From assembly GCF_028736115.1 (NCBI RefSeq), contig NZ_CP117877.1, positions 4,534,187 to 4,598,186 of the forward strand: a DNA stretch of 64,000 bases, read 5' to 3'. A program made the translations under genes and the position numbers. Shown piece after piece: positions 41,298-64,000 of this stretch. Source of the stretch: Mucilaginibacter sp. KACC 22063 (GTDB taxonomy: Bacteria; Bacteroidota; Bacteroidia; Sphingobacteriales; Sphingobacteriaceae). The notes under the pieces are model-generated. The model ran no database searches. It was given only the letters and a program-made list of their open reading frames with translations, and was not told the DNA's origin. The first letter of the stretch is position 1. Each line of letters opens with the position of its first letter.

Positions 41298-41298
41298 A

Positions 41299-44610: not shown

Positions 44611-44632
44611 CGATTGAAAATTTGTGTTTGAC

Positions 44633-44824
44633 TTAAAAATCCTCAATTTTAAGACCATCAGAACTCAATACAGCTTTTATATTTTCCCTACCCAACTCTA
44701 CATATTCAAGAATTAAAGCAGCCTTATTTATATCTTTCTCTTTAATAGCCTCACGATACTTATCCATCAACCCACTTACATACAGACGCTCATTAACTGT
44801 CATTCCCAAGTACTTATTTGCCAT
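44633..44824 (-). CDS. hypothetical small protein
   Basis: 63-aa ORF at the island edge. No motif. Confidence 0.35.
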   Translation of the reverse strand: MANKYLGMTVNERLYVSGLMDKYREAIKEKDINKAALILEYVELGRENIKAVLSSDGLKIEDF

Positions 44825-45139
44825 GTTAATTATTACATAATAAGTTTAATTGCAGTTATCTTGTTGAGCCACCCAAATGATCTATAAATATAATTTCACC
44901 CATATACCTACTATAATTAAAATTATAATATACTCAGTCCACATATTCCTATTGTCCTACTTAGAATTAATTTGTCTTCGCAATCCCCCTCTGAATCCAT
45001 GTAGCACCCAATAAAAAAATGCTCCTATCCACAAGCATGTTAGCCTTGCTGCAAACGGTTCCTTTGCCATTATTTAAATTTCTTTCCCTTCAGACCTGCC
45101 TAGTAGTATCATTAAAACAATATATTTAATTACATGCTT

Positions 45140-45634
45140 CTAATTAACAACTTTATGCTCTTTGTTAAAATCATCCCAGCTCATTACCTGGTGATCATCA
45201 AAATAGCTTGCTACAAGTTCAATATTAAAAAGTTTAGGCTCTTCTCTAATGTTTAGCTTATTCAAGTACTTTTTATAATCTTGGTACTTACTAAATCCTT
45301 TTTCCAAACGCTTAGATGGTATAATTATGTGCCATGATTGTTTTTCATCTTTACCATCGAGAATAGTATTTATATTATAAAGAAAAATCGCATCATCTTT
45401 TACTGCTACCTTAACCGTATTTGGAAGGCCAGTATCCCCGTTTCCGAATAGATTCACACACCATCCAAATTCTTTAGAGGTTAGTATTGCTTCATAGGGC
45501 TTTAACAACGGTATTCGTGCTGAATCCCATTCTCCTTTCTCGGTATAAAACGAATCTGTTGTCGATTGTTTATTAGAATACTGTAAACAAGAAGTTAATA
45601 TCAATGATAATATAAAAAGGTACAGTTTTTTCAT
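45140..45634 (-). CDS. hypothetical lipoprotein
   Basis: Lipobox LILTSC. 164 aa. Confidence 0.5.
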   Translation of the reverse strand: MKKLYLFILSLILTSCLQYSNKQSTTDSFYTEKGEWDSARIPLLKPYEAILTSKEFGWCVNLFGNGDTGLPNTVKVAVKDDAIFLYNINTILDGKDEKQSWHIIIPSKRLEKGFSKYQDYKKYLNKLNIREEPKLFNIELVASYFDDHQVMSWDDFNKEHKVVN

Positions 45635-45720
45635 CGTTTTATATTTTTCACGTCAACTTTCATAAAGTCCCGATAATCTATTATTCACTTACGACTTAGA
45701 AAGGACTTAAAACAGTATTA

Positions 45721-46077
45721 TTAAGCCTGTCCCGGTTCTTTGATTCGACTTCTTTTAAAATTACTAAATAACATTAATCCATAACTTAGTATAATAAAGC
45801 TTTTAACTATCAATTTTTTTGTAAAGTCAGCTTGATTAAAGTACACGTCAATTTTAGAAATGGACTTACCTAATATTGTCACATTAAATAAAAAAAAGAG
45901 CAGTATAGGAATACCGACAGGAGTGTTCGTTCTGAACTCAATAAAAGGAAACACATAAGCAACTATTAAAAGCAATCCCATTTCAAGGACAGGCAAATAA
46001 TACGATTCATTGTAAATGAAATGTAAAATCAGCCAAATGATTAATATTATCGCTGTGCTATAAAATCTGAATTTCAT
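45721..46077 (-). CDS. hypothetical membrane protein
   Basis: 118 aa, 3-4 TM helices. Confidence 0.45.
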   Translation of the reverse strand: MKFRFYSTAIILIIWLILHFIYNESYYLPVLEMGLLLIVAYVFPFIEFRTNTPVGIPILLFFLFNVTILGKSISKIDVYFNQADFTKKLIVKSFIILSYGLMLFSNFKRSRIKEPGQA

Positions 46078-46223
46078 TGTAGTAACTGCATTCTAAAATT
46101 GACTAAAAATTTAATAAATACCCCGTCAGTTCTCGTTCCACTTGAGTATTGATCATCGATGGATTGTTTATAACCAGATGTTCAGAATATACTAGTATCG
46201 TGAGAGCGACTCTGAAAATCTTC

Positions 46224-46670
46224 TCAGTTTGTAATACCTAAAAAAGTTTTCAAATCATCTACATTATATAGTTCCAATGCCTTAAAAAAATAAACAGCAT
46301 GTTGTTTTCCCCTATAGTTAAATTTCATTTTATAAGAGAATCTTGCTGGTTTTCGCGCTAAGCTAAAAGCCTTTTTTAAATCAATGATTTCTGAAAGAGG
46401 CACTGTTATTTCATCTTTAGAAAAATAAGTTTTTATAGTAAGGCTCTTTGAGCTATACGACACCTTTCTATATTTCAATTGCTTGTAAGACTGCACTAAT
46501 ACAAGTATTATTAACAGAAAGTAAATAATTATAATGATGTTATCCGTGAAACTTTGAGCCCAGAAAATTCTAACAAAGATTATTATCAATATAGGTCCTA
46601 TAAATAATCCCACTAATGACCTATAGTATAAAACATCTGACGATAATTTTTTCATCTCCTTAGCTAACAC
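46224..46670 (-). CDS. hypothetical membrane protein
   Basis: 148 aa, 2 N-terminal TM helices. Confidence 0.45.
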   Translation of the reverse strand: MLAKEMKKLSSDVLYYRSLVGLFIGPILIIIFVRIFWAQSFTDNIIIIIYFLLIILVLVQSYKQLKYRKVSYSSKSLTIKTYFSKDEITVPLSEIIDLKKAFSLARKPARFSYKMKFNYRGKQHAVYFFKALELYNVDDLKTFLGITN

Positions 46671-46771
46671 TAATAGCTATATAATCCATCTTGTAAAGAC
46701 AACAGGCAATATTGATCTAAAATGCGAGATTGAGTGATCTTTAGTTAGATTAAATGTAAGAAAAATAAATC

Positions 46772-47179
46772 CTAGTGGATACCTGTAATTTGCTCCATTA
46801 TATGAAAAGCAAGCGCAAGGCTACCAATAACAAATGCTATCAAGGCTATTACTAAAAATGTACCTGCCAAATTTATATTTGGTTGCATCTTGTCAAATTC
46901 ACGTATATATTTTTTCCAATTTGAATTATGAATAAATGCAAAGTAATTAATTAAGAATACCACTAAAAGTGATATTAAAGTTTGAAATGAAAAAAAGGTA
47001 AACGCATCTTCTTGATCAATGAATTCGATGTAGTAAAATTTTAAAGATATTAAAAACAATACTTCTAAACACGAAATCGAAAATGCAGCTGTAAAATCAC
47101 TTGGAAAAATGGACGGCGACCATTCACCGAACTTATAAAATTTATAAAATAAATAATAGTATGCCCTTTTCATACTCAC
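46772..47179 (-). CDS. hypothetical membrane protein
   Basis: 135 aa, 3-4 TM helices. Confidence 0.45.
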   Translation of the reverse strand: MSMKRAYYYLFYKFYKFGEWSPSIFPSDFTAAFSISCLEVLFLISLKFYYIEFIDQEDAFTFFSFQTLISLLVVFLINYFAFIHNSNWKKYIREFDKMQPNINLAGTFLVIALIAFVIGSLALAFHIMEQITGIH

Positions 47180-47346
47180 TTTTTAATAATGATTTATAAA
47201 TCAAAAACAGGCCATAACACCCGCTATTAAAGCTACCAATCCAATTAAGAATTGGATAAGACTATCTATTTTCACTTTGACATGTAAAATAATAAGTTTT
47301 CAATTTAATTGATATAGAATAAAAAACGCAGCTCCGTTTACGCCGG

Positions 47347-47853
47347 TTATTTCATCATTATCCTTTTACGATAAACATGCCGTGATACAAGCACATTTAT
47401 AGTCTCAAAACTGATTATGATGTTGCTTTCGGAGGTGTTAAAGTACACGTTCACAAATACAGGCGTATCTATTCTGCAGGTCTTGCAAGTAATTCTATGA
47501 GATGCAGACCATCTGTACTTTTTAAAAGTAGTGTTAAAATACTTACACAGGGAGTTGAATATAGATTGATTAGGCGTTTTCATTGCATTTATGATACCAG
47601 TCCTCTTCACATCAAACCAACCTCTGTAAATCATCTCAGAATTACTGGCTTTTAGATTGAAATATATCCTATCTAGAATCTTGGATTTGATCAAATCTTT
47701 TTCAAAAGCCGCGCTATCTAAAAAAATCGTGCTTGTAAATTTAATTTTAGGTTTTAAGGCAGGAGCAGCACAGCAATCGTTTTGTGCATGGAGTTCCTTA
47801 CTTATGGTTACAAAAAATCCAATAAGCAGCAAAAGTATAAGCTTGTTCATCAC
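47347..47853 (-). CDS. hypothetical secreted protein
   Basis: Signal peptide MMNKLILLLLIGFFVTISKELHA. Cys-containing. 168 aa. Confidence 0.5.
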   Translation of the reverse strand: MMNKLILLLLIGFFVTISKELHAQNDCCAAPALKPKIKFTSTIFLDSAAFEKDLIKSKILDRIYFNLKASNSEMIYRGWFDVKRTGIINAMKTPNQSIFNSLCKYFNTTFKKYRWSASHRITCKTCRIDTPVFVNVYFNTSESNIIISFETINVLVSRHVYRKRIMMK

Positions 47854-48291
47854 TTTACTATGTTTATAGCAATTAATAAATATTAAATGAATTCTGGTTC
47901 AAACTTTATCCATTCAGCATCACTTAGATTTTACCTACTGCTCGCCCCTTAACAAAAAAACGCAGTCCTTATATGTAAGAGCTGCGTTTTTAGTACCCCC
48001 GACGAGAATATTAATACAGGCTTTTTACAGCGTTTCTGGCTCATTTTGGCTCAAATCGACTCATTTAAAATGCAAAAAAGTCCATTTGTATTTTACCTAT
48101 TATACGACTTGTAAGTGAATATGAGACGGTGGTTTATAATAGCACATAATAAGCTTTGTATTCCTCTAAGCTAATAATGTCAAATAACAACATTAAAATT
48201 AATCTAAACTTTTTCTTTTCTTGCTATGATACAATTGTCGATTATTTGAAAATACAAAAGGTATTTTATACATTAACAACAAATCTTTCAC

Positions 48292-49254
48292 ATGCCTAAG
48301 CTTAATACAAATACATTTAAAACTCTTGACGATTTACTTACGGCGGTTTATCAAGACTTAATGGAACGACCGAGTTCTATTCCAACTACAAGAAGCAAGA
48401 AAGGGGGAGACACTTGTGAAATTATTGGAGTAAGTTTGACTTTAGCCAACCCTCGTGCCCGCTTAAGTCGCTCTGAAGTTAAAGGCAAAGCATTTAGTCC
48501 TGTAGGCGAACTACTTTGGTATTTGTCTGGAAGTAATACATTAGAATTTATACAACCCTATATTTCGCATTACAAAGATGAGACAGATGATGGCAACACA
48601 ATTTATGGCGCATATGGCCCAAGGCTATTAAACATGCATAATAAATATAACCAGGTCAATAATATCATAAAATTATTAGGGCAAAAGCCCACATCTCGAC
48701 GTGCAGTTATACAACTTTTTGATGCATCAGACTTAGTTGGAACACATAAAGAAATTCCTTGTACTTGCACCTTACAATTTCTTTTGCGAGACAATCAATT
48801 AAATCTACATGTATCGATGCGCTCTAATGATGCATACATGGGCTTACCACATGACGTATTTGCCTTCACAATGTTGCAAGAAATAATGGCAAATATACTC
48901 GGTGTGGATATGGGGGCTTATCACCATTCAGTTGGGAGTCTACACCTTTATGATAATGATAGGAATCTTGTCGAACAATATTTATATGAAGGTTACCAAC
49001 CAACGAAATTTTATATGCCAGCTATGCCGAAAGTTGATCCTCGGCCAGCGATTAAGCAAATAATTAAACTTGAAGAGCTTATCCGAACGGATCAATCCTT
49101 TTGTCTTGATGGCCTTGATCCATATTGGGTTGATATCATAAAAATGGTACATATTCATTTTCTGAGTAAGAAAAAAGATATCACTGGCATCAGAAATGTT
49201 ATGGCTGGCATGAATGACATTTACAAAATGTATATTGAAAAAAAGATTTGTTAA
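48292..49254 (+). CDS. thymidylate-synthase-family enzyme (ThyA fold), predicted deoxycytidylate-type pyrimidine C5 hydroxymethylase/methylase
   Basis: Aligned from memory with E. coli ThyA: ELLWYLSGSNTL vs ELLWFLQGDTNI; TSRRAVIQLFD vs DSRRIIVSAWN; catalytic Cys in IPCTCTLQF vs APCHAFFQF; MRSNDAYMGLPHDVFAF vs QRSCDVFLGLPFNIASY; GSLHLYDN vs GDTHLYSN. The specificity Asn (ThyA N177) is replaced by Asp (PHD), as in dCMP hydroxymethylase. Confidence 0.8.
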   Translation: MPKLNTNTFKTLDDLLTAVYQDLMERPSSIPTTRSKKGGDTCEIIGVSLTLANPRARLSRSEVKGKAFSPVGELLWYLSGSNTLEFIQPYISHYKDETDDGNTIYGAYGPRLLNMHNKYNQVNNIIKLLGQKPTSRRAVIQLFDASDLVGTHKEIPCTCTLQFLLRDNQLNLHVSMRSNDAYMGLPHDVFAFTMLQEIMANILGVDMGAYHHSVGSLHLYDNDRNLVEQYLYEGYQPTKFYMPAMPKVDPRPAIKQIIKLEELIRTDQSFCLDGLDPYWVDIIKMVHIHFLSKKKDITGIRNVMAGMNDIYKMYIEKKIC

Positions 49255-49272
49255 TTCGCGCTTTTAAATATT

Positions 49273-50070
49273 ATGGTCGACGAAATAACAGAATTAGTTG
49301 AACGACTTTCAAATCCAAATCTCGCGGAATTAGATGTAATTACATGGGGAGCTCCTGTGCCTACATTTGGTAACTTAGAAGGCGCTAAAATTGCTACACT
49401 GGGTTTAAATCCAAGTAACAAAGAATTTGTAGACAATTCTGGTAATGAATTAATAGGTAACGCAAGACGCTTTCATACCTTAAGCTCATTAGGATTGGAG
49501 GCTTGGGAAGACGTACAACCTTGTCATCTCAACTCAATTGTTGAGTTATGTAATGAGTATTTTTTAAGAAATCCTTATGATGGTTGGTTTAAACGATTAG
49601 ACTATCTAATATCAGGTACATCTTTATCATATTATTTCCCCTCATCAGGGGCTTGTCATTTGGATTTAATACCTTACGCAACAACCACTAAATGGGGAGA
49701 ATTGACTAATTGGCAAAGAAATACGCTACTGAAAGAATATGGAGACATACTTGGTGAATTATTACGGAAGTCATCCATAAGATTATTAGTTCTTAATGGT
49801 AAAAGTGTCTTGGATAACTTCAATAAAATTTCAGATGTTAATTATGAAATTACATTGATGGAAGATTGGTGTTTACCAAGAAAAGACAGTACAGGAGTTC
49901 CTGGGTTTTCTTATGAAGGCATTTGCAGAAATATTGGAGGTGTATCTTTAGATGAACCTCTTTGTGTACTTGGATTTAATCATAATATTCAAAGTAGCTA
50001 CGGTATAACAACTGCAATTCAAGAATCAATTAGAAAATGGATAGCCACCAAATCGGCCAGCTTTTTATGA
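49273..50070 (+). CDS. hypothetical protein co-operonic with the TS-like enzyme (weak UDG-superfamily-like motif)
   Basis: 265 aa, 19 bp after the TS-like gene. GLNPS resembles uracil-DNA-glycosylase superfamily motif A (GxNPG/GINPG). No P-loop. Assignment is tentative. Confidence 0.5.
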   Translation: MVDEITELVERLSNPNLAELDVITWGAPVPTFGNLEGAKIATLGLNPSNKEFVDNSGNELIGNARRFHTLSSLGLEAWEDVQPCHLNSIVELCNEYFLRNPYDGWFKRLDYLISGTSLSYYFPSSGACHLDLIPYATTTKWGELTNWQRNTLLKEYGDILGELLRKSSIRLLVLNGKSVLDNFNKISDVNYEITLMEDWCLPRKDSTGVPGFSYEGICRNIGGVSLDEPLCVLGFNHNIQSSYGITTAIQESIRKWIATKSASFL

Positions 50071-50993
50071 GACTTTCAAGGGATATAGAGTTAGAAACTT
50101 CGTTAGTAAGTAGTCTTAAAGCTTTTCAAAACACAACCCCCTTATTAGGAATTGCGAATCAGCCAGAGCTTGACTGCTTTGTAAAACAGCTTGTGGATAG
50201 TGTACGTAGGATACAATATGTAACAACTATACGTGATAAAATAAATACACCGAGTTGTGTTAATCCTAACCTTGGCGGATTTAACCCCATTAAAGCGGCT
50301 GCGTTTCATCATGCTAATGGAAATTCGGAAGAAGCTTCTTGGCTTGTATTTTTAGCCACACATTTTGGCAAAAATAAAGCATCGGGATGGCAATTACTAC
50401 AAGATGTCTACGGTACTTTGGGAATGGGCATATTCGATTGGCAACAAGCATGTCAGTCTCCTCGAGGACTCGGAATATGGATTGATAATAATAAGAATCA
50501 GTTAAAAGCAAATGGTGGCAACTTTGGTAACCATCGAAAATATCAAAGCCTTAAAGTAAATAATACCGGCCAAACTATTTCGAGCTATATTGATTGGATT
50601 GGCAAAACCAAATCTCATTTAGTTAAATTTTTACAACTTGAACCAAACCAAGCTAATCCCAAAATACGATTTAGGGCATTTTATAATTCAATGTTACAAG
50701 TATATGGATTTGGAAGAACTGCTGTATTTGACTATTTAACCATGATGGGCAAATTGCAGCTTATTGATGTAGAACCCGACTCTGTATACATGATCGGCGC
50801 CACGGGGCCATTTAAAGGAGGACGGCTCCTTTTTACTGGAAGTTGTAATGCCTCAATTACACGCCGCCAAATGGATCGAATGCTGTCTTCACTTAACCAA
50901 CATTTAGGTATACCATTTGGGATGCAAGTATTAGAGGATGCTTTATGTAATTGGCAGAAATCTCCTAATCAGTATATTTATTTTAGCGGTTAA
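50037..50993 (+). CDS. hypothetical protein, third gene of the TS-like operon
   Basis: 318 aa. Start overlaps the previous gene by 34 nt (translational coupling). No motif I can assign with confidence. Confidence 0.55.
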   Translation: MDSHQIGQLFMRLSRDIELETSLVSSLKAFQNTTPLLGIANQPELDCFVKQLVDSVRRIQYVTTIRDKINTPSCVNPNLGGFNPIKAAAFHHANGNSEEASWLVFLATHFGKNKASGWQLLQDVYGTLGMGIFDWQQACQSPRGLGIWIDNNKNQLKANGGNFGNHRKYQSLKVNNTGQTISSYIDWIGKTKSHLVKFLQLEPNQANPKIRFRAFYNSMLQVYGFGRTAVFDYLTMMGKLQLIDVEPDSVYMIGATGPFKGGRLLFTGSCNASITRRQMDRMLSSLNQHLGIPFGMQVLEDALCNWQKSPNQYIYFSG

Positions 50994-52080
50994 AATCAGG
51001 TATTGCCTCCCAAGTATATTTCCTTTTATAAGAATTGAATCTATTATATTCGATTTTTCCGAAATGCTGCATCTGACCAATCAAAATACCTGCAGAAACA
51101 CCAATTTTTGAGGCAAAACCGATAATAAGCCTTTTATTGCTCACTGGCAATTTCATCATATTTTCGCGATAAATAGAGGGTATTAATTGTTCAGCAGCAA
51201 ATTCATTGGCTTCCTTTTCTTCTTCGCTTGTAAGCCTGTTTCTGCTAATTTCTTCAACAAACACAGAGTTTTGCCCATGCAATAACAAGTGGCCAGCCTC
51301 ATGAAAAAAAGTAAACCAAAAGTGATCATCAGTCAGATAACGAAAGCTGAGCATTAATAAAGCTCTATTTGGACTCAAAAATTTAGTTACACCACTCGCC
51401 TGACAACCATTAGGAGTTCGAACAATCGCAATAGCAACTCCACATTTAGCACAAATCGCCTTTAGCTTAGGCAAGAAAATCTCAGGTTCTTTAATTTTTG
51501 TTAGTGAACGTATTTCTGTTAGTGATGCTGCAAACAGTGCGGCATTCCAGTCTTTACATTCTATCGATTGACTTTGTATTTCTCCCTGTCTAAGCCATGC
51601 CGCGACAGCAGCTGGCTGTTGTTTGAAACTGGAAGATGTCCGAAATGACACTTGCGCCATTTCTGCTTGATATTTATTATGCCACTCATTGATATCAGAG
51701 ACTCCGAAATAAAGTAGCAATGCGTCAACACTTTTAGCTACCTCTTCCTTTATCCACCCGAAGTTTATCATATCACGTATTGGCAAAAGCTTAAGCCATG
51801 ATTGTTCCGCAACCTTTTTCAACCTCACAAGCCCTTCTCTGTATTGAAATTCTCTTCTTAACCAAAAGTCGACAGATGCACCAAGTATTTCTGAGAGCTT
51901 TTGAGACGTTTCCTCTGTAATTACCGCAGTACCATTCAAAAGCTCATTTATAAAACCTATGGAACTATTCATTTGAGCTGCGAAATGATGTACAGATATC
52001 TTCTTTTCTTCCAGTAATTCAACAATTGTGTCTCCTGGTACTGAAATCCAATTAGGTTTAAATGTTTCTGTGGTTAACAT
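50983..52080 (-). CDS. XRE-family HTH fused to ImmA/IrrE (COG2856) zinc metallopeptidase domain; HigA-like antitoxin/regulator
   Basis: N-terminal HTH (ISVHHFAAQMNSSIGFINELLNGTAVITEETSQKLSEILGASVDFW). C-terminal FTFFHEAGHLLLHG (HExxH of ImmA/IrrE). Starts 2 nt after the HigB-like ORF. Confidence 0.8.
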   Translation of the reverse strand: MLTTETFKPNWISVPGDTIVELLEEKKISVHHFAAQMNSSIGFINELLNGTAVITEETSQKLSEILGASVDFWLRREFQYREGLVRLKKVAEQSWLKLLPIRDMINFGWIKEEVAKSVDALLLYFGVSDINEWHNKYQAEMAQVSFRTSSSFKQQPAAVAAWLRQGEIQSQSIECKDWNAALFAASLTEIRSLTKIKEPEIFLPKLKAICAKCGVAIAIVRTPNGCQASGVTKFLSPNRALLMLSFRYLTDDHFWFTFFHEAGHLLLHGQNSVFVEEISRNRLTSEEEKEANEFAAEQLIPSIYRENMMKLPVSNKRLIIGFASKIGVSAGILIGQMQHFGKIEYNRFNSYKRKYTWEAIPDFNR

Positions 52081-52082
52081 AA

Positions 52083-52400
52083 TTATTGGATTTTTACAAT
52101 TTTAATACGATTAACTTTATTCCAATCTAACTGATCTTCCTTATTTAACGGCTGATGTTGATGAACAGAAAGAAAAATAAGAAAATGTGACGGCAATATT
52201 TCAATTTGGTAAGCAGGCCGACCTTCCAAAACTACTTCCTTTGGAGAACCCGTAGGAATATCCATTACACAATTTGCAGCCATAATATCAGCTAATCGTG
52301 TTTTAAGCTTTTTAGCAAAAACACTACCCAGTTGATCCTGAGCAAATTCCTCATTTTCACAAATCATGCGCAATGTTGGATCTGAAAAAGAGATGTGCAA
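52083..52400 (-). CDS. HigB-like (RelE/ParE superfamily, plasmid-maintenance killer-type) toxin
   Basis: 105 aa. Resembles HigB from memory (KKLKTRLADIMAANCVMDI vs HVKKLRMRLDVLDAAECLHDL; PAYQIEILPSHFLIF vs HSIRINDQWRICFVW). Toxin-first order with an HTH partner downstream. Confidence 0.6.
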   Translation of the reverse strand: MHISFSDPTLRMICENEEFAQDQLGSVFAKKLKTRLADIMAANCVMDIPTGSPKEVVLEGRPAYQIEILPSHFLIFLSVHQHQPLNKEDQLDWNKVNRIKIVKIQ

Positions 52401-52595
52401 CGCTTATTATATACTTAAAAGTCAATGATAAAGTTTGGGATCTCTGAATGAAATCATCGACAAAACTATTAAAAAATACTTTATTTAGAATTGATTAAAG
52501 GGTTTAATGTATGAATTGTTGATAAAATTAACAGTTGTTGAAAGTATAAAACGCATGATATATATTAAGCCCGTTAAAAAGCCTATTTTGTATCA

Positions 52596-52976
52596 ATGAT
52601 CATCCCAGTTGCTGCTGCCATAATAATAAAGGACAATAAGATTATGATTGCCAAACGATCACAACATAAGCATTTGGGTGGCTTTTGGGAGTTTCCTGGC
52701 GGTAAAATAGAGGCTAACGAGACTGCTGAAAACTGTTTGTTACGCGAACTAAATGAAGAGCTCAAAATAAAAATAAAAGTAATTAGCTATTTGGCTGAAA
52801 ATACATACGATTATGGCTCAATAAAAATTTTGCTTAAGGCATTTATATGTCATTTTATAAGTGGGCAATTTACACTAATTGACCACGATGAAGTAAGATG
52901 GGTGACTACTAAACAACTGCAAGATTACAATATGGCTCCTGCGGACATTCCATTCCTGAAATTACTTACCAACTAA
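52596..52976 (+). CDS. Nudix hydrolase, MutT/NudG-like (8-oxo-dGTP / (d)CTP pyrophosphohydrolase family)
   Basis: 126 aa. Nudix box GGFWEFPGGKIEANETAENCLLRELNEELKI. Confidence 0.85.
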   Translation: MIIPVAAAIIIKDNKIMIAKRSQHKHLGGFWEFPGGKIEANETAENCLLRELNEELKIKIKVISYLAENTYDYGSIKILLKAFICHFISGQFTLIDHDEVRWVTTKQLQDYNMAPADIPFLKLLTN

Positions 52977-53291
52977 TAGAATGAGCAATGTAAGATTCTT
53001 GATATATCCTTCTAACTACGTTTCTTAACCTATGTAATAAATCGATCTTATTTAATCGATACCATATTTAGTTGAAATCAGGTACAAGTGTTCGCTTTAG
53101 TGGAATTCCCCAAAAAATAGGCATTAAAAACACAGGTTCGATTCCTATCCGAAATAATATAAAAATGTCAACCTTACAGAAATTCGTCAATTACTAGCCT
53201 CTTATCGTTGCTTAGGTAAAGCAGTAGGTAAAATTTTAGATGTTTTTAGTATAATAAATATTAAAAACATCTCTCTAAATTGTGGCGACGA

Positions 53292-55785: not shown

Positions 55786-55850
55786 TTGATAAACGGGTCA
55801 TTCCGACTTTACAGAATGACCCGTTTATCAATCAGCGATTTTAAGCATAA

Positions 55851-56903: not shown

Positions 56904-58208
56904 ATGACATATTGCCTTACCATTTTTAAATTAAAAAGCCTGCCGTTAGCGCTAGCTTTAGGATTCATCTCATTTTCTTTGCCAGGAAAACATAGAATAA
57001 TGTCAAATCGCTTTATTTCTTTTGAAGTTTATTCCTTATTAATTCAAGATCAAAGTGGCAGTCCGATACCATTTGCCACATTAACCAACACATCGCAGAA
57101 TTATTCACGTCCATTTGATAATACCGGGAAAATGGAACTGGAATCGAAAGATTTAAAAGCTGATGATAACATTATAATAAGTTGTCTAGGCTATCAGACA
57201 AAAAATCTTAAAGGGCTAGACATTATGTCTGTAAAATCACTTGCTGTAACACTAAAAGATGATATCGTCTCCTTACATGAGGTAAAGATTATACCTAGTA
57301 AATACGACTTAATATTTAAAAACATTCAAGCTCTACCGTTTCCACTCTATTATCAAGCTTACGCAACCGATGGTCGGTATGCTTACACTATTGGCGGGGA
57401 ATCCGGTGCTACAGTATGTACACAAGCACTAAAGTTTGACCCGCATTCTAATACGTGGAGCCTGTTAGCTAACCATTTAAAACCTACAATTCAATCAACT
57501 GCTACTTATTTACCGATTTCAAATAAAATTTATGTTTTTGGAGGAATAACCTCGCTTGTCAATTTTACATATTTTGAAAACGTTGAAACAATTGATGTCA
57601 ACACAGGGAAAGTAGAGATATTAAATGTAAAAAATCCGATGCCATCAGCATATGGTGGATCGGATACTTGGGCTAATAAAATTTATCTATTTGGAGGCTG
57701 CAGTGATATTAACAACTATACATCCAGCAAAGCAACCAACGATTTTTATGAATATGATCCCGTGACCAATGTGTTTACAAGGCTCCCGAACATGCCAGAA
57801 AAATTACAGACAAGTGGTCGAATTATAAATGGCATTTTATATATATTAGGTGGATTTAACCCGCAGAATGCACATATAAGTAGAAATATCTACAGTTACA
57901 ACATTAGAGAAAAATACTGGAAATTATTAGGAAAATTACCAGAAGAAGTTTCAGGAAACGGTCTTTCTGCTATAGGTAATTTGATATTTGTTTCGGGAGG
58001 TTATGAAAAAGAAACATTCTTAGGCTTCCTAAATACGCAAACTGGAGAGTTCACAAAGCTCAAGTCTAACATGACGGGTCGAAGACACTCAGCTTCTGTC
58101 ATTTTATATAATCATTTAATGATAATTGGGGGGAAAGGTGACGGTAATATTACCGGACTAAACAATGTCCAGGTTGCAAACTTGGAAAGTTTGATAACTA
58201 ATCAGTAA
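56904..58208 (+). CDS. Kelch-repeat beta-propeller protein
   Basis: Six repeats with xGG ends (YAYTIGG, KIYVFGG, KIYLFGG, ILYILGG, LIFVSGG, LMIIGG). N-terminal hydrophobic segment. Confidence 0.7.
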   Translation: MTYCLTIFKLKSLPLALALGFISFSLPGKHRIMSNRFISFEVYSLLIQDQSGSPIPFATLTNTSQNYSRPFDNTGKMELESKDLKADDNIIISCLGYQTKNLKGLDIMSVKSLAVTLKDDIVSLHEVKIIPSKYDLIFKNIQALPFPLYYQAYATDGRYAYTIGGESGATVCTQALKFDPHSNTWSLLANHLKPTIQSTATYLPISNKIYVFGGITSLVNFTYFENVETIDVNTGKVEILNVKNPMPSAYGGSDTWANKIYLFGGCSDINNYTSSKATNDFYEYDPVTNVFTRLPNMPEKLQTSGRIINGILYILGGFNPQNAHISRNIYSYNIREKYWKLLGKLPEEVSGNGLSAIGNLIFVSGGYEKETFLGFLNTQTGEFTKLKSNMTGRRHSASVILYNHLMIIGGKGDGNITGLNNVQVANLESLITNQ

Positions 58209-58225: not shown

Positions 58226-59284
58226 GTGAATATCAGAATTACACTTTGCAGTCGTCCAGACGATCAAGAAGTCATAGATTTAAGGAAAAGAATTAAGGAT
58301 ACAAGCGGATACTCCACTTTTAGAAGCGAAGATTCTAAAAGGGAATTTACATACATTACCATTTCAAATATTGAAGAAGTCATAAATGACTCTGCCATTA
58401 AGATTTTAAGTAATCGATTTTATCACTTATTATTGAGACCCAATACTTCGAAAAGTATCCAAACCAATCAGTCGAAAATTTTTAACTGGCTAATTGAAAT
58501 TCCAATTTATGAATCAATTATTGACAAAAGAATCAAACTTACACTTGATATGTTTACGAACTATCATAAGATAAATTTCACAGTTCTTAAATCATCAAGT
58601 AGTAAAATATTATCAATAAGTCTTCTCAATCAAATACCTGAATTTTTAAGTAATTTATACACTTTACTGCTTTCTTTAACCGGCCCAGTAGATGCGCATC
58701 AAGCAAGGCACGAGATCGTATTGCAAGAGATTATTGCAAAAAAATCACGATTTGTACTTGAATTAGGATGTGGAAAAGGCAACTTTATTACACGTTTAAA
58801 TCGTGCATTGCCTGACATTCAAATCTGTGGTATTGAAATAAATCTTGATGATTTTCAACATGCGACAGCATATTTCGAACGACAAATTCATTCAGGACTA
58901 ATTTCTATGGTCAATGATTCGATATGCTGTTTTGAAAAATGGCCGCCGGGAGTTGACTGCATCACTTTAAATGAAGTAATCGAACATCTTACAGAACAAG
59001 AACTAAACCAGACCATCAAGCATATTTTTAACAACGTAAAACCGGAAGTAGTTATTATCACAACTCCCAATAAGAACTATAATAAATATCTCAAGCTTAC
59101 AGAAGAAGGGTTCCGACATCCCGATCATCGTTTTGAGCTCAGTCGCGAAGAATTTTCCAGGTTCGCAGCTAGAGTGATCAATGATCATGAATATGGATTT
59201 GAAATACTTCCTCATTGGTGGATTCGGGATGGTTTGGAATCATTGTCAACTATAGCCATTTTCACAAAATATTCTTGCACTTGA
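58226..59284 (+). CDS. class I SAM-dependent methyltransferase (C-terminal half) with unassigned N-terminal domain
   Basis: Motif I VLELGCGKGNF, acidic residue after beta-2 (GIEIN), motif IV-like DCITLNEVIEHL. Confidence 0.65.
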   Translation: MNIRITLCSRPDDQEVIDLRKRIKDTSGYSTFRSEDSKREFTYITISNIEEVINDSAIKILSNRFYHLLLRPNTSKSIQTNQSKIFNWLIEIPIYESIIDKRIKLTLDMFTNYHKINFTVLKSSSSKILSISLLNQIPEFLSNLYTLLLSLTGPVDAHQARHEIVLQEIIAKKSRFVLELGCGKGNFITRLNRALPDIQICGIEINLDDFQHATAYFERQIHSGLISMVNDSICCFEKWPPGVDCITLNEVIEHLTEQELNQTIKHIFNNVKPEVVIITTPNKNYNKYLKLTEEGFRHPDHRFELSREEFSRFAARVINDHEYGFEILPHWWIRDGLESLSTIAIFTKYSCT

Positions 59285-59307: not shown

Positions 59308-59835
59308 TCACTGAGGGTATAAGGTTTTTAATCTCATACCCACAGAGTCGACTATTTTTTCTAAAACTGAGGTTCTCTTTACAACAACCGACAAATGTAA
59401 TTTTAAGTGTGGATTTTGTCTTAGAAGTCTTTTTATTGAGGAATCGATTTTGAATTTTACAAGCGTTTCGGTTTCGGTTATAGGCGTTACGTTTAACAGC
59501 TTCAAACTTAAGGCAGCATTGCGCTTTAATTTAACATCGTAGGCTTTAATGATGATATCTTTCTCGAGCCTGTCGTCTATCGGTTTCCTTATAGGAATAA
59601 TTATAGATGAATAATAATAGCAATTATTACCTTCAGAACAATTGATTAATGTATTTGATTCAATTGTCTTTATAACCGGATAATCGATTAGAGATAACAA
59701 TAATAGTGTGAAAAATAAGAATAAAGATGATAGAAAAATTCCCCACCGTATCGCCCATGGCGGGCTGGAAAGAATTATATTATCGATTTCAACTGTATGC
59801 TTTTTAGCGTACTTTTTAGAATTTAAGTTTTTCAT
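59308..59835 (-). CDS. short HlyD-like membrane-anchored accessory protein
   Basis: N-terminal TM then IDYPVIKTIESN, like the HlyD N-terminus. Only 175 aa. Overlaps the ABC exporter stop by 4 nt. Confidence 0.45.
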   Translation of the reverse strand: MKNLNSKKYAKKHTVEIDNIILSSPPWAIRWGIFLSSLFLFFTLLLLSLIDYPVIKTIESNTLINCSEGNNCYYYSSIIIPIRKPIDDRLEKDIIIKAYDVKLKRNAALSLKLLNVTPITETETLVKFKIDSSIKRLLRQNPHLKLHLSVVVKRTSVLEKIVDSVGMRLKTLYPQ

Positions 59836-62012
59836 GTACCTAGTTCCAATTGATTTTGCACAAGCGCGTAGTATTGGCCTTTTGAGGCTACTAACTGGGA
59901 ATGCGTACCTTGTTCAACGATACAACCGTTCTCTAAAACAATAATATTATTAGCATTTTTTACTGTACTCAACCGATGAGCTACTATAACTACCGTTTTC
60001 CCGCGAAAAAAATCGTTTAAGTTTTCGATGATAATTTTTTCATTCGTACTGTCAAGCGCATTTGTCGCCTCATCAAAGAAAATGTAAGATGGATTTTTGT
60101 AAATAGCTCTTGCAATTAATATTCTTTGACGCTGTCCCTGACTAAGACCAGTGCCCTCGGCACCTATTTTTGTATCAATTCCAATGGGCAATGAGGATAC
60201 AAAATCTTCTATGTTGGCCATTATCAATGCTCTTTTTATCTTTGCATCATCGGGATCAGGATCTGCTAATGTTATATTTTTCCTGATTGTATCTGAGAAG
60301 ATGAAGCCGTCCTGCATAACAACGCCACATTCCGCTCTCCAAGTTTCAAAAGATATTGATGACAGCGAATGATCTCCAATTTTGATTACTCCAAGATTGA
60401 CTTCATAAAATCTTAGTAGAAGTTTTAATATTGTCGTCTTCCCACTACCGCTCATACCTACGATAGCAGTAACCTTACCCTCTGGAATCGACAGATTCAG
60501 ATTTTTAAATAAAAAATTTTCAGAACTGCCTTGATATCTAAAACTTACATCTTCAAATTTGATGCTCTTTTCGGTAGGCAATTCAGATGAAAGATCTGAC
60601 CCCAGAGATTCTTCATCGTCAAGTTCAAATATCTCGTTGAGTCTTTCTAGACTTATCTTTGCATCTTGGAAAGATTGAGCAAAAGAAATAAACTGCTGAA
60701 TTGGCATATTTAACTGCCCAATTATGTACTGTATTGCAACCATAGTACCCAGCGTAATTTCATTGTTAATTACTGCCTGCGCACTCAAAAATGTAATCAG
60801 CAAACCGGTTGATTCATTAATTAATATGGAACCACCTTGCTGAAATTGATTTAATGACAGAGCTTTTATACTAAACTTAAAAGTTCTTGCCTGCAAAGTT
60901 TCCCACTCCCACCTCTTTTCATTTTCATAATTATTTAACTTAATTTCTTGCATACCGTTTACGATTTGAATCATCGTACTTTGATTAGTAGATGAAATAT
61001 CAAATCTTTGATAATCAATAGTCCTTCTGCGCTTCAAAAAACTAATTATCCATATTGTGTATAGAAAATTTCCTATCATAAATACGATAAAAACTTTAAC
61101 GCTATACATAATAAGGACTACTGTGAATACAATTAAGTTAAATACAGAAAAAATAGTTGTTAATGTTGACCCTGTCAAAAAGCTTTCGATTCTTCTTTGA
61201 TCAGTTGTCCTTTGTAGTATGTCCCCGACCTTTTTCGAGTCAAAGAAATTTATGGGTAACCTCATCAGTTTAATTAGAAAATCTGTCAGTATAGAAATAT
61301 TTATCCGCGTACTTATATGCAGTAATATCCAAGACCTTATAAAATTAATACTAGACCTGCCTATTATTAACGTTGCCTGTGCCAGAATGACGAGATAAAT
61401 AAATGTAAAATTTCCAGTTCCGATACCCACATCAATAATAGATTGGGTTAAAAAGGGAATAATTAATTGTATAAGGCTTCCCACAAGCAGGCCAAGAATT
61501 AGCTGCGAAAAAAGCTTTTTATAAGGCGTAAGATACTTGCTTAGTAAACGCCAGTTGATCTTATCGCTCTCTTCACCGCTATCTGCACAAAATTCTGGTA
61601 AAGGATTAAAAAACAAGGCCAATCCCTTATCTGATGAAAATTTCTTTGACTGCCAAGAAACAAGAAAATCAGATTCTTTCATTTTAACTAAGCCATTTAA
61701 TGGGTCAGCCAAAAAGAAGTTATTTTTTTTTATTTTATATAAAACGATAAAATGATTTCCACGCCAATGCAATATGCAGGGAAGTTTAACCTGATACAAC
61801 CCTTCAAGTGAAATTTGACAACTAAATCCATCGAGTCCTATCTTTTTAGCACCTTTCAAGATATTGTTAAATGAGACGCCCTCAGGTCCTATTTCTGTGA
61901 TTTGCCTCATTGTGTTGAGGCTGTAGCTGCGTCCATAAAATTTTGCAATCATACGCAAGCAGGTTGGGCCGCAGTCTGTCTGGTCGTGCTGCTTATAGAA
62001 TGGGAATTTCAT
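59832..62012 (-). CDS. bacteriocin/lanthipeptide-processing ABC transporter with N-terminal C39 peptidase domain (LanT/SunT-type)
   Basis: C39 catalytic Cys in QHDQTDCGPTCLRMIAKFYG. 6-TM domain. Walker A GMSGSGKTT, signature LSQGQRQRILIARA, Walker B FFDEAT. Confidence 0.9.
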   Translation of the reverse strand: MKFPFYKQHDQTDCGPTCLRMIAKFYGRSYSLNTMRQITEIGPEGVSFNNILKGAKKIGLDGFSCQISLEGLYQVKLPCILHWRGNHFIVLYKIKKNNFFLADPLNGLVKMKESDFLVSWQSKKFSSDKGLALFFNPLPEFCADSGEESDKINWRLLSKYLTPYKKLFSQLILGLLVGSLIQLIIPFLTQSIIDVGIGTGNFTFIYLVILAQATLIIGRSSINFIRSWILLHISTRINISILTDFLIKLMRLPINFFDSKKVGDILQRTTDQRRIESFLTGSTLTTIFSVFNLIVFTVVLIMYSVKVFIVFMIGNFLYTIWIISFLKRRRTIDYQRFDISSTNQSTMIQIVNGMQEIKLNNYENEKRWEWETLQARTFKFSIKALSLNQFQQGGSILINESTGLLITFLSAQAVINNEITLGTMVAIQYIIGQLNMPIQQFISFAQSFQDAKISLERLNEIFELDDEESLGSDLSSELPTEKSIKFEDVSFRYQGSSENFLFKNLNLSIPEGKVTAIVGMSGSGKTTILKLLLRFYEVNLGVIKIGDHSLSSISFETWRAECGVVMQDGFIFSDTIRKNITLADPDPDDAKIKRALIMANIEDFVSSLPIGIDTKIGAEGTGLSQGQRQRILIARAIYKNPSYIFFDEATNALDSTNEKIIIENLNDFFRGKTVVIVAHRLSTVKNANNIIVLENGCIVEQGTHSQLVASKGQYYALVQNQLELGT

Positions 62013-62096
62013 ATTTACGATGTTCTTAAAGTAATTAAATAGCGCTGTAAAACGAAAAAAAAGTTTTATTTTACCGGAAATATAATTACCTCAACC

Positions 62097-64000
62097 TTGA
62101 AATTATTTAATCATGTACTTACCAGAACTTGTGGTCTTTCATTTGAAACGGCATGTCAGAGTTCGGAACTATTACTGGCCGCAGCCATAAAGTATATCAA
62201 TATTAAAGATGAGCTCACAAAAATTAAAATAATTCTTCTTGAAGAATTACACGACCACAACCAAGCACTTACAAACCATGGCTTACAACAGAAAATTCAA
62301 AACATAAGAAGAAAGATTTTTCAGGATAAGGACTTAAATGAAAGTGACAAGAATTTAATATTGGAAGCTTCTCCTCAAATAGCTTTTACTTATAAGAGAT
62401 TTCAGTCCATTTTTTTAACTCTGGAAGATGAAAATCAAAAAGGCCAATACATCTTTTCCAAAACAATTCTACATGAACGACAATCGCTGCGTATACAAGT
62501 TCAAAATGATACTTTTAAAAATGCTGTAGCGCAGTCAAGTCACCTATTATTAAGTCAAATCGAGAAGATAGGCAAACAACAATCTATAACAATTGATAAG
62601 AAATATTCACAAGCAGAAAAAAGCTTAATTAAATATTTATCTAGAGCAAGTACAAAAACATCACCATTCAGCACCTTCACCAATCTTACAATTTCGAAGT
62701 TAGTACAGAGTGATGATGCAAATCCTTATGTCAAAGTTGAAAAAAAACCAATAAAAATAATAAAATATACAAAAGTTAACAATTTACTTCAGTTAATTTT
62801 CATTGAGGTCTTGCTTACTTATGAGGAAGTTTTTATCGACTTAAATTTAAAGTTGAATTCTACTTTTCGAAAAGACAGTAAGGGGTACAGTTTTTTGGTA
62901 AACTTAAAGAATATTGATCATTTCCAGACTGTTGACTCAAACGCATTATGTGAACTGATAATTTCCCTTTTGATTTATGGTAACTTGAAATTTATTGATA
63001 TAATTAACAAAATTACAGAAGAATTTGATATTGAGAAGAACTATCTGATTGACTTTTTAAAGAACTGCATAAAAATTGGACTATTGGAAATTGATTTAGG
63101 ATACTCTCCCCTAGACGCACAATGGCTGGTTAGCATGTTAAATGTCATAAACAAGGTCAACTCATCCAAATTAGATAAGTTTGGTGAAATCCTCAAAAAA
63201 CTAGCATATGAACAATCAAGATATCATCTAGTCTCACTATCCCAAAAAATCATTATTCAAAGTGAATGCTATCAGCAAATAGAAAATTTCTTAACCAATG
63301 ATTATGCACAACCATTAACCGTTGATACCGAATATTATTTAAAATTTTTCCAAAATGCCATCAAAAAAGAAAGCTTGTTTTTTGAAGATGTTAAATCCAA
63401 CATTGAAATAGAAATAGGCGGCGCTGGAATTGAGGAGGATTTTCAATTATTACTAAAAGCGATACGTAAATTAAGCTTCTTAGATGGCAGGAGGCACGAC
63501 AAAATCAAAACATTCAACTTTTATAAAAATTTCTACCCTCATAAGACAACGGTTCCTCTTATCGAGTATTATCAGGATTATTATAAATTTTTGAAAAGGA
63601 CTTCGAAATCTCAAGCAACACCCGAGGAAGATCAAAATAAGGATTTAAAAGATGCTTATCAAAACCATTTATTAAAATATGACAGATGGAAAGATAAACT
63701 AATATCCTTATTAGATTTAGATTATTTCAACGACGATAAAAATGAAATTAGAATCACTTCAGAAATTTTAGATGCTTGTAATAATGAAGTCGAATTTTAT
63801 CCTGAAAATGTAGGAAACAAGTCTTACGCTGGTTTTTTTCAAATGACACTAGCGCCTAAAAACGAGAAGTACATCTGCGAAAAATTGATAGTCAACTCAT
63901 TCTATTCTGGATATGGCAAAATGTTCTCACGTTTTCTACATATGTTTGATGATGAAGTTACAACTGAGATTAAAAAACAAAATGATAATTTAAGACCGGT
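62097..64000 (+). CDS. lanthipeptide dehydratase N-terminal (glutamylation) domain protein, split LanB, 3' partial; start codon uncertain
   Basis: Frame open from 62040 to the window end. Hallmark KYLSRASTKTSPFSTFTNL (LanB RxTPFG motif) and later VNSFYSGYGKMFSRFL. No in-frame ATG in the first ~230 codons. Candidate TTG start at 62097. An ATG at 62113 is in the +1 frame. Confidence 0.7.
   Translation, partial: MKLFNHVLTRTCGLSFETACQSSELLLAAAIKYINIKDELTKIKIILLEELHDHNQALTNHGLQQKIQNIRRKIFQDKDLNESDKNLILEASPQIAFTYKRFQSIFLTLEDENQKGQYIFSKTILHERQSLRIQVQNDTFKNAVAQSSHLLLSQIEKIGKQQSITIDKKYSQAEKSLIKYLSRASTKTSPFSTFTNLTISKLVQSDDANPYVKVEKKPIKIIKYTKVNNLLQLIFIEVLLTYEEVFIDLNLKLNSTFRKDSKGYSFLVNLKNIDHFQTVDSNALCELIISLLIYGNLKFIDIINKITEEFDIEKNYLIDFLKNCIKIGLLEIDLGYSPLDAQWLVSMLNVINKVNSSKLDKFGEILKKLAYEQSRYHLVSLSQKIIIQSECYQQIENFLTNDYAQPLTVDTEYYLKFFQNAIKKESLFFEDVKSNIEIEIGGAGIEEDFQLLLKAIRKLSFLDGRRHDKIKTFNFYKNFYPHKTTVPLIEYYQDYYKFLKRTSKSQATPEEDQNKDLKDAYQNHLLKYDRWKDKLISLLDLDYFNDDKNEIRITSEILDACNNEVEFYPENVGNKSYAGFFQMTLAPKNEKYICEKLIVNSFYSGYGKMFSRFLHMFDDEVTTEIKKQNDNLRP

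Follow-up and report, generated by a model that had tools for sequence, protein, structure and literature searches.

Genomic islands devoted to defence and competition show a sharp shift in base composition, cargo of a conflict type and a modular content that differs between close relatives. We analysed a stretch of 64,000 nucleotides from Mucilaginibacter sp. KACC 22063 (contig NZ_CP117877.1, positions 4,534,187 to 4,598,186; hereafter the window), in which an AT-rich region occupies positions 44611-64000 and continues beyond the window's right edge. This region is probably an acquired mosaic of three cargo blocks: block A, a set of small membrane and lipoprotein open reading frames (ORFs; 44633-47853); block B, a portable six-gene cassette and candidate defence system (48278-52976); and block C, a lanthipeptide cluster (53292 to ~64766). 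Each of the blocks seems to bear on conflict, with phages or with other microbes. As in the known islands, single modules recur elsewhere beside restriction-modification (R-M), Shedu-type, Abi and type IV restriction genes. The locus differs from the known islands in having no recombinase, transfer RNA target or flanking repeats visible in the window, and in joining a cluster for a peptide made on ribosomes and modified after translation (RiPP) to a defence-type cassette. The island as such is an ordinary AT-rich accessory region.

The closest described relatives of the cassette come from several directions. The only characterized aGPT-Pplases, those of clade 2, are amino-acid:DNA transferases of phage thymidine hypermodification; they act on kinase-phosphorylated 5-hydroxymethyldeoxyuridine (5-hmdU) in DNA and depend on an essential cysteine with a neighbouring glutamate (PMC8989533). 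In the thymidylate synthase (TS) superfamily, MilA is the cytidine monophosphate (CMP) 5-hydroxymethylase of mildiomycin biosynthesis; its preference for CMP needs Lys133 and Ala176, and the A176S/K133R variant prefers deoxycytidine monophosphate (dCMP) (PMC5175136). In the phage T4 dCMP hydroxymethylase (dCH, gp42), Asp145, which stands three residues before the catalytic cysteine, activates the water molecule by which the methylene intermediate is hydroxylated; E. coli TS has a leucine there (PMC6400193). PD-λ-2 is a validated three-part abortive-infection system: a helix-turn-helix (HTH)-peptidase fusion is toxic alone and is neutralized by a HigB-like protein, and a third protein is needed for defence (PMC9519451). 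Glycosylases of the uracil-DNA glycosylase (UDG) fold (Brig1, Brig2 and Brig3) and those with a helix-hairpin-helix (HhH) fold (Dag) are proven anti-phage effectors, located in AT-rich regions. The cassette, as described below, resembles each of these systems in part and differs from each in part.

The composition of the window changes abruptly at one point. In non-overlapping 1-kb windows, GC content is 0.431±0.024 over positions 1-44000 (n=44) and 0.334±0.021 over 44611-63610 (n=19; Mann-Whitney p=4e-10). In 2-kb windows it stays at 0.39-0.47 until ~44 kb and at 0.30-0.38 from there to the window end, and 400-nt windows place the step at ~44400-44800. GC content at third codon positions (GC3) is 0.36-0.51 in nine scored host-side genes (33761-44610) versus 0.23-0.39 in island genes. 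Moreover, tetranucleotide log-odds, which are normalized for base composition, correlate at r=0.93-0.95 among three host segments and at 0.45-0.62 between host and island. The two halves of the island correlate with each other at only r=0.66. The island begins directly after the stop codon (44610) of the last gene of host composition, which forms its left anchor:

43795 to 44610, plus strand: glycerophosphodiester phosphodiesterase (GDPD) gene (PF03009, 3.9e-28; GC 0.457, GC3 0.511)

Upstream of the island lies ordinary Bacteroidota chromosome, with a SusC/SusD pair, DUF4397, SDR and DUF4256 genes and then GDPD. At the other end, the final ORF of the window encodes residues 1-634 of an 889-aa LanB protein, so the island reaches at least to ~64766, ~0.77 kb past the window.

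The original prediction, made from the letters of the sequence, had described an island of about 19 kb or more with a sharp GC drop that lasts to the window end. GC windows, GC3 and tetranucleotide signature all bear this out, and the low-GC region indeed runs on past the window with the LanB gene. The predicted inventory of hypothetical genes, a toxin-antitoxin-like pair, nucleotide-modification genes and a RiPP cluster proved essentially right in family searches. Scans for transfer RNA (tRNA) and Pfam domains also agree with the statement that the window shows no integrase, transposase or full tRNA: no tRNA, transfer-messenger RNA or Rfam family was found in the window, and Pfam scans of the island ORFs, and of most of the larger ORFs at 22.8-44.6 kb, turned up neither an integrase nor a transposase domain. 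There are no tandem repeats at 40-64 kb, and a scan for σ70 promoters and terminators gave counts equal to the shuffled expectation.

How widespread is the island? Among 185,579 species-representative genomes we found GDPD orthologues at 33 loci, mostly in Mucilaginibacter, with at most 65% identity and different neighbours. Island genes lie within 10 kb of GDPD at none of the 33, which at that divergence is weak evidence for a sporadic distribution. The original prediction had pointed to presence or absence in related genomes; with GDPD this distant and the flanks non-syntenic, a comparison across the genus says little on that point. A closer lineage (runs SRR31304512, SRR31304513 and SRR31304515) is represented by three Logan assemblies (L071-L073). 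Two of them, L072 and L073, are collinear with window 43322-45025, at 96.4% identity in the host part (the same value as for the GDPD gene itself) and 90-92% in the island part. The third, L071, fuses window 44532-45077 to 45715-46920 (92-95% identity), and in place of the 637 bp between them (45078-45714) it has 38 unrelated nucleotides (L071 1207-1244). All three assemblies have the identical junction, so the joint between GDPD and the island is older than the split of these lineages. By this comparison, the island is not specific to the strain.

The part of the island that these assemblies reach is block A. It consists of six minus-strand ORFs of 63-168 aa, of which one encodes a lipoprotein, one a secreted protein, three membrane proteins and one a soluble protein (63 aa):

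44633 to 44824, minus strand: 63-aa hypothetical protein WDF55237, convergent with GDPD and 22 nt from the GDPD stop; junction kept in L071-L073
45140 to 45634, minus strand: 164-aa predicted lipoprotein, signal peptide ending in Cys; absent in L071
45721 to 46077, minus strand: 118-aa multi-pass membrane ORF; DNA 95% conserved in L071
46224 to 46670, minus strand: membrane ORF WDF55239, annotated as 143 aa from an internal ATG; cluster mate on L071
46772 to 47179, minus strand: membrane ORF annotated as 133 aa; weak full-length likeness to Bfi1 immunity proteins
47347 to 47853, minus strand: 168-aa ORF with a signal peptide

The indel of 637 bp removes the lipoprotein gene from L071. Block A is, as far as these alignments go, still gaining or losing genes between close relatives. 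None of its ORFs matches Pfam, PHROG or PADLOC. The likeness of the fifth ORF to Bfi1 (NF053699) has E=4.6e-6 and 26.6 bits, below the family cut-off of 100. A putative array of orphan immunity genes is a reasonable guess for the block. The 63-aa protein WDF55237 has members at least 90% identical in Logan assemblies. Two of the ORFs (45721-46077 and 47347-47853) are probably unannotated at NCBI, because they have no exact protein match and the accession numbering of their neighbours leaves no slot for them.

Block B has a different distribution. It is bounded on both sides by homology borders, and its six genes form two groups that converge, followed by a separate Nudix gene:

48278 to 52976: portable six-gene cassette, 79% DNA identity to a homologous locus (L034) over 48278-52972, ending at both edges
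48292 to 49254, plus strand: TS-superfamily enzyme, predicted dCMP 5-hydroxymethylase (Cys157, Glu154, Arg136, Ser178, Asp188)
49273 to 50070, plus strand: 265-aa protein with a predicted UDG/thymine-DNA glycosylase (TDG)-superfamily fold (invariant GLN46PS motif)
50037 to 50993, plus strand: aGPT-Pplase clade 3/ADDT protein (PF18746, 1e-90; PF18724, 4e-67); start overlaps the upstream gene by 34 nt
50983 to 52080, minus strand: HigA-type HTH fused to an M78 (ImmA/IrrE) peptidase, 365 aa (PF06114, 4e-10; HTH_3; TIGR02607, 4.7e-9)
52083 to 52400, minus strand: 105-aa ORF directly upstream of HTH-M78, at the position of a HigB-like partner
52596 to 52976, plus strand: MutT/NudG-type Nudix hydrolase (PF14815, PF00293)

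We examined 37 further loci, drawn from Bacteroidota genomes and metagenomes, plasmids of Alpha- and Gammaproteobacteria and of Actinobacteria, and 26 IMG/VR contigs. Gene order and orientation are the same in all 37, at locus GC contents that range from 0.33 to 0.67. Further matches lie on other plasmids, Leptospira included, outside the loci scored for gene order. The recurring core is the TS-like, aGPT-Pplase3 and HTH-M78 genes; the UDG-fold and Nudix genes are added mainly in Bacteroidota. At one locus (L035) the cassette has a GC content of 0.357 versus 0.45-0.52 in its flanks, and at another (L045) genes for tyrosine-recombinase integrases stand on both sides. Judged by these borders and contexts, the cassette is a discrete portable block that moves between genomes as a unit.

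Defence genes recur among its neighbours elsewhere. The L034 copy adjoins GmrSD and type I R-M genes. In Flavobacterium litorale (CP080429; L038) a gene whose product has a SduA_C (Shedu nuclease) domain lies inside the cassette, between aGPT-Pplase3 and HTH-M78 (L038 10930-12027). In a Chitinophaga locus (L040) the neighbours are Peptidase_U49 (Lit-like), AbiC and AAA_5 genes. The plasmid copies neighbour genes for a double-stranded DNA nuclease, for Dcm together with HNH and, in the case of a phage-plasmid-like replicon, for a restriction endonuclease. Only in KACC 22063 does the cassette adjoin a RiPP cluster.

The individual copies vary in several ways. The GmrSD-family gene of L034 (1417-3243, minus strand) is head-to-head with the cassette hydroxymethylase gene, and an IS1595 transposase gene and a PIN gene lie near the interrupted Flavobacterium cassette. 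In Larkinella rosea (L039), Chitinophaga sp. S165 (L040 and L041) and L045, the Nudix gene leads the enzyme operon and does not follow the regulator pair; the UDG-fold gene is missing from the copies of Larkinella and L045. One viral contig of 118,644 bp (IMGVR_UViG_3300025711_000239; L059 and L061) carries the cassette twice, at ~12-29 kb and 106-119 kb; a terminal duplication may explain this, or else an assembly concatemer. On a GC-rich IMG/VR contig (L050) the cassette is flanked by two ORFs of 1472 and 1359 aa (1481-5899 and 11010-15089, both minus strand) without a Pfam domain, and a second, stand-alone M78 peptidase gene lies nearby; long ORFs in such GC-rich DNA can be spurious. Two IMG/VR cassette contigs were inspected: one is integrase-flanked and the other has no recognizable phage genes.

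We considered whether an inverted repeat, I8 (47923-47942 and 53220-53239, 20 nt, 90% complementary), could be the terminal repeat of the cassette, and rejected it. The homology to L034 stops inside the bracketed span, at 48278 and 52972, so I8 is not a terminal repeat and is probably a chance pairing. A search for an operator shared by the two cassette promoter regions gave matches at chance level only.

Taken with the composition, these comparisons favour a mosaic over the two other origins that we considered. One is that the whole AT-rich stretch is a single integrative element (an integrative and conjugative element, an integrative mobilizable element or a degraded prophage) with its integrase and attachment site beyond the window. 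Such an element would suit the abrupt GC step at 44610, the unseen right end with LanB running off the window, the L045 cassette between its tyrosine-recombinase genes and the 26 homologues on IMG/VR contigs. Yet its ~20 kb include no gene for conjugation, replication, a capsid or a recombinase. Sharp homology borders of its own delimit the cassette, which is found elsewhere without block A or block C; the island halves differ in oligonucleotide signature; block A varies independently between close relatives; and a search of the window, beyond which the right end of the island lies, gave no convincing direct repeat of the left junction. We regard a single element as quite unlikely. The other origin would be no acquisition at all: the region would be ancestral and AT-rich through its types of gene (membrane proteins, secondary metabolism) or through a local mutational bias. 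A lineage with a 96% identical host flank does have the same junction and block A, which speaks against a recent strain-specific gain, and no mobility genes are visible. But GC3 and the normalized tetranucleotide usage shift as well, and not just the GC content that amino acids dictate; the cassette's soluble enzymes equal the membrane ORFs in AT content; a copy in another genomic context shares 79% DNA identity with the cassette, and in L035, too, the cassette is richer in AT than its host; and island genes are absent from all 33 GDPD loci of related species. We hold an ancestral origin to be highly improbable.

Acquisition as a mosaic has difficulties of its own, and they should be weighed here. 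The species representatives include no clean empty site, since GDPD is at most 65% identical and the flank non-syntenic in them. The sole close lineage that we found already bears the left part of the island. The window shows neither an integrase or transposase gene nor a tRNA, and no direct repeats that flank the island. For block A as conflict cargo, the Bfi1 match is far under its family cut-off. Because no mobility signature is visible and the right end lies beyond the window, the case for horizontal acquisition is one of composition and comparison. On that footing, the blocks were probably gathered at one variable site, a course of assembly that we infer from what they look like today. 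The original prediction of an AT-rich accessory island inserted after GDPD thus stands for the accessory island, by composition; a single insertion event is not shown, and a mosaic fits better. Its suggestion that two modules may have been acquired separately holds, going by the homology borders of the cassette, by the occurrence of the cassette without the RiPP cluster and by the differing signatures of the island halves, although we count three blocks and not two.

What might the cassette do? Database names point to thymidine chemistry, and they mislead. The first enzyme matches thymidylate synthase in Pfam and NCBIfam only partially. Its best match in the Protein Data Bank (PDB) is MilA, at 1.2e-49 over the full length including the C-terminal extension, versus 9e-22 for any true TS. 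With MilA and T4 gp42 it shares a catalytic cysteine, a cytosine-type aspartate and an acidic residue three positions before the cysteine. Asp188 stands at the place of the uracil-specifying Asn177 of E. coli TS, and MilA and T4 dCMP hydroxymethylase likewise have Asp. Where MilA has Lys133 and Ala176, the window protein has Arg136 and Ser178, the pattern of dCMP enzymes. Among 36 cassette copies, Cys157, Ser178 and Asp188 are present in all and Arg136 in 34; the position three before the cysteine (154) is Asp in 21 and Glu in 15. The window protein has Glu154, where the rule drawn from T4 gp42 would call for Asp. Because it combines the cytosine-type Asp188 with the deoxy-type Arg136 and Ser178 and an acidic residue before the cysteine, the enzyme is predicted to be, and probably is, a dCMP 5-hydroxymethylase. 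Two features of the reference systems are missing: the cassette has no MilB-type glycosidase (by Pfam), and the T4 kinase and glucosyltransferases have no counterpart in it. On these residue patterns, the cassette is predicted to act on deoxycytidine and not on thymidine, despite names such as "thymidylate synthase" and "thymine pyrophosphorylase".

The 265-aa protein has no match in Pfam, NCBIfam, PHROGs, PADLOC or PDB sequences. A structure predicted from a 51-sequence alignment gave, in a fold search, the alpha/beta fold of the UDG/TDG superfamily; we discarded a single-sequence prediction (predicted local distance difference test score, pLDDT, of 33). On the strength of this model we are confident that the protein has a glycosylase fold. 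Residues G44, N46, P47, S48, N236, N238, Q240, S241 and S242 are invariant, and H237 is present in at least 90% of sequences. The GLN46PS motif may correspond to the G-I/M-N-P-G of TDG, MUG and SMUG.

The aGPT-Pplase3 protein has 2529 homologous clusters and, in 30 sequences, an invariant motif, E300-D301-x-x-C304-N-W-x-K308. From the clade 2 precedent we infer that the cysteine and glutamate are equivalent to the catalytic pair there, which serves C5-methylene chemistry. Its HhH fold is taken from the literature, and its profile has no meaningful match among PDB sequences. Neither this protein nor the UDG-fold protein has a tblastn match in 50,697 phage records or a PHROG.

The Nudix hydrolase is best matched in NCBIfam by NF007834 (NudG-type pyrimidine (d)NTP diphosphatase; 4e-34, below cut-off) and matches the PADLOC candidate family PDC-S07 at 3.9e-50. 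It is predicted from these families to be a pyrimidine (d)NTP pyrophosphatase. No cassette gene encodes a kinase domain in Pfam or NCBIfam, and the one protein of enzyme size that these families leave unassigned is that with the UDG fold.

A near precedent for such an enzyme set is phage thymidine hypermodification (Lee et al., PMC8989533). In viruses that replace their own thymidine, a dUMP hydroxymethylase supplies 5-hmdU, a P-loop 5-hmdU DNA kinase creates the leaving group and an aGPT-Pplase acts as amino-acid:DNA transferase. It is a pathway in which a gene for a TS-superfamily hydroxymethylase also stands beside one of the aGPT-Pplase family and the latter's product has a conserved cysteine with a neighbouring acidic residue. 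There the likeness ends. The aGPT-Pplase belongs to clade 3 here and to clade 2 there; the TS-like enzyme is of the cytosine type (Asp188); the cassette has no kinase, pyridoxal-phosphate or radical S-adenosylmethionine (SAM) partner; it is coupled to HTH-M78; and it has no copy in sequenced phages or PHROGs. We rejected thymidine hypermodification of the phage type on three of these counts: Asp188 in 36 of 36 copies, no kinase in the cassette and no copy among the phage genomes searched.

The other strand carries the putative regulators. The HTH-M78 gene is convergent with the aGPT-Pplase3 gene, with an overlap of 11 nt. Its product matches PADLOC PD-Lambda-2_B (PDLC03982) at 2.3e-24, residues 42-353 aligning with positions 86-388 of the 402 in the profile. 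In PD-λ-2 (Vassallo et al. 2022) and in the cassette alike, a small ORF precedes the gene for a HigA-type HTH with a fused M78 peptidase; here the two genes are an integral part of the cassette. The third component of PD-λ-2, which is P4 antitoxin-like, has no gene in the cassette; the convergent enzyme operon is invariably attached instead. Searches by tblastn show the 105-aa ORF in 20 of the 37 loci, and it has no match in Pfam, PADLOC or PDB. By hhalign it is collinear with a HigB-type toxin at a probability of 12%.

From these observations we infer the substrates, the order of the reactions and a role. Most likely the cassette serves in defence against phages or mobile elements, by an abortive or replication-blocking route. 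Its HTH-M78 and small-ORF pair would keep the system in check and gate its release on a trigger. Once released, the Nudix hydrolase would convert deoxycytidine triphosphate (dCTP) to dCMP, and the hydroxymethylase would convert dCMP to 5-hydroxymethyl-dCMP (5hm-dCMP), a step that by itself would drain dCTP. C5-modified pyrimidines, in DNA most likely, would then be the target of the TDG-like and HhH base-flipping proteins, which would excise the base or carry out transfer chemistry at its C5-methylene, and replication would be blocked. In this form the cassette would be an immune effector that turns phage-style base modification on invaders: a switch is released, dCTP is drained into 5-hydroxymethyldeoxycytidine (5hm-dC), and the base is excised or derivatized. 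We offer the scheme tentatively; in its full detail it is possible but doubtful. Were it true, this would be the first cellular, non-viral nucleotide pathway to 5-hydroxymethylcytosine (5hmC) and the first function for clade 3 aGPT-Pplases.

Anti-phage glycosylases provide a partial precedent. Like Brig and Dag, to which we liken them by fold and setting, the UDG/TDG-fold and HhH-type proteins of the cassette lie in an AT-rich mobile region among defence genes. Brig and Dag, though, are single-gene effectors (two-gene for Brig3-BapA) that attack bases made by the phage, whereas the glycosylase-fold genes of the cassette are linked to one for an enzyme that would itself make a modified nucleotide. 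DefensePredictor lists an aGPT-Pplase system as predicted, unvalidated defence that sometimes lies in defence islands and is possibly of another architecture than the cassette; a different E. coli system that it validated combines a TS, a deoxynucleoside monophosphate (dNMP) kinase and a 5-hmdU kinase (PMC13092281). A defence system built like the cassette would join nucleotide-pool manipulation, DNA glycosylase immune effectors and toxin-antitoxin-like gating.

Several points weigh against a defence role of this kind. The cassette has no kinase to activate 5hm-dCMP or bring it to DNA, and clade 3 aGPT-Pplases have no experimentally supported activity. The UDG-fold and Nudix genes are accessory, because they are absent from most of the four-gene cores. 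The third PD-λ-2 component was not found in the cassette, and a HigB identity for the 105-aa ORF has no statistical support (hhalign 12%, no family match). Finally, 26 of the homologous loci come from a viral-contig database, so that a role for the mobile elements themselves is possible.

That last point leads to a module for self-modification of DNA, which would put 5hmC, or something derived from it, into DNA of its host or of the mobile element that carries it, as protection against restriction. Characterized aGPT-Pplase relatives and TS-like hydroxymethylases do just this in phages (PMC8989533, PMC6400193), and the settings of the cassette include plasmids, a phage-plasmid-like replicon and IMG/VR contigs, with R-M systems among its neighbours. 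The cassette lacks, however, a dNMP kinase, a kinase for 5-hydroxymethyluracil or 5hmC in DNA and a dedicated polymerase, and its aGPT-Pplase3 and UDG-fold proteins are missing from the 50,697 phage genomes and from PHROGs. In L034 it adjoins GmrSD, and GmrSD enzymes are type IV restriction enzymes that recognize glucosyl-5hmC (PMC13160076); the pairing would be odd if the cassette placed hydroxymethylcytosine in host DNA. From a TDG-like glycosylase encoded in the same operon one would expect removal of C5-oxidized pyrimidines, not tolerance of them, and the rigid coupling to an HTH-peptidase pair like the toxic one of PD-λ-2 better fits a gated defence. We think self-modification unlikely. 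A third possibility takes its cue from MilA, by far the nearest solved homologue (1e-49, full length). In a small-molecule pathway comparable to MilA/MilB of mildiomycin or to bacimethrin, the cassette would make free 5-hydroxymethylcytosine or a nucleoside antimetabolite, perhaps together with the lanthipeptide cluster that it adjoins in the window; the Nudix hydrolase could provide the monophosphate and the glycosylase-fold protein could free the base. But nearly all copies, this one included, have the deoxy-type Arg and Ser in place of MilA's Lys133 and Ala176, and both partner enzymes belong to DNA glycosylase superfamilies and not to the MilB family. No exporter or tailoring genes accompany the cassette, its adjacency to a RiPP cluster is unique to this genome, and its recurrent neighbours are defence genes. 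A small-molecule pathway is very unlikely. Whichever of its functions holds, the cassette is a well-defined experimental target, with six genes in ~4.7 kb between sharp borders and homologues in the thousands.

Block C has its own precedents. Pinensin-type clusters (Mohr et al. 2015; Walker et al. 2020, PMC7268733) combine a pinensin leader, a split LanB, a LanC related to the LanM cyclase and a C39 ABC exporter, and block C has all four. A split LanB in a pinensin-type layout is as found in the family I-17 clusters of Bacteroidetes (PMC7268733). The genes are:

53292 to 55286, minus strand: LanC cyclase, 664 aa (PF05147, 8.9e-61; TIGR03897, the LanM C-terminal part, 6.4e-69)
55495 to 55785, plus strand: pinensin-family precursor, 96 aa (NF038180, 1.9e-10, 40.5 bits, cut-off 24; NCBI annotation agrees)
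55778 to 55839: hairpin (inverted repeat I1; 26-nt arms, 92% complementary, 10-nt loop) that begins in the last precursor codons
55851 to 56768, minus strand: stand-alone LanB elimination domain (PF14028, 1.2e-39; TIGR03891, 7e-27)
56904 to 58208, plus strand: Kelch-repeat beta-propeller protein (Kelch families down to 1e-30) with a hydrophobic N-terminus
58226 to 59284, plus strand: SAM methyltransferase (PF13489 and related; TIGR04074, bacterial Hen1, 7.7e-37, C-terminal half only)
59308 to 59835, minus strand: 175-aa membrane protein WDF55252, start overlapping the transporter stop by 4 nt; no family match
59832 to 62012, minus strand: C39-peptidase ABC exporter, predicted to cleave the leader and export (PF03412, 3.5e-33; ABC_membrane; ABC_tran; TIGR01193, 3.9e-115, below cut-off)
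62097 to 64000, plus strand: LanB glutamylation (dehydratase N-terminal) protein, start TTG, residues 1-634 of 889, identical to P0241 (100%; PF04738)

Glutamylation and elimination are assigned to separate LanB proteins, a LanC and a C39 exporter are present, and the precursor has a core rich in Cys, Ser and Thr. By its gene families, block C is a predicted pinensin-type class I lanthipeptide cluster, tailoring candidates included, that would produce a secreted, modified peptide. The strong hairpin at the end of the precursor gene is likely a terminator or attenuator, by which the amount of precursor transcript relative to enzyme transcript would be set.

The cluster departs from the pinensin type in three places. 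Its LanB is very divergent: in a set of 5.8 billion proteins the next best homologue of the glutamylation protein is 26% identical, though the precursor leader is a standard pinensin leader. The LanC protein has an extension of ~250 aa; its cyclase domain spans residues 8-413, and residues ~415-664 match no Pfam, NCBIfam or PDB-sequence family. Third, the cluster contains genes for a Hen1-type methyltransferase and for a Kelch protein. As a very divergent pinensin-type cluster from an under-explored phylum, block C is a reasonable natural-product lead. Its methyltransferase resembles Hen1, an RNA 3'-end 2'-O-methyltransferase, and not the isoaspartate-type O-methyltransferase that is usual in class I clusters.

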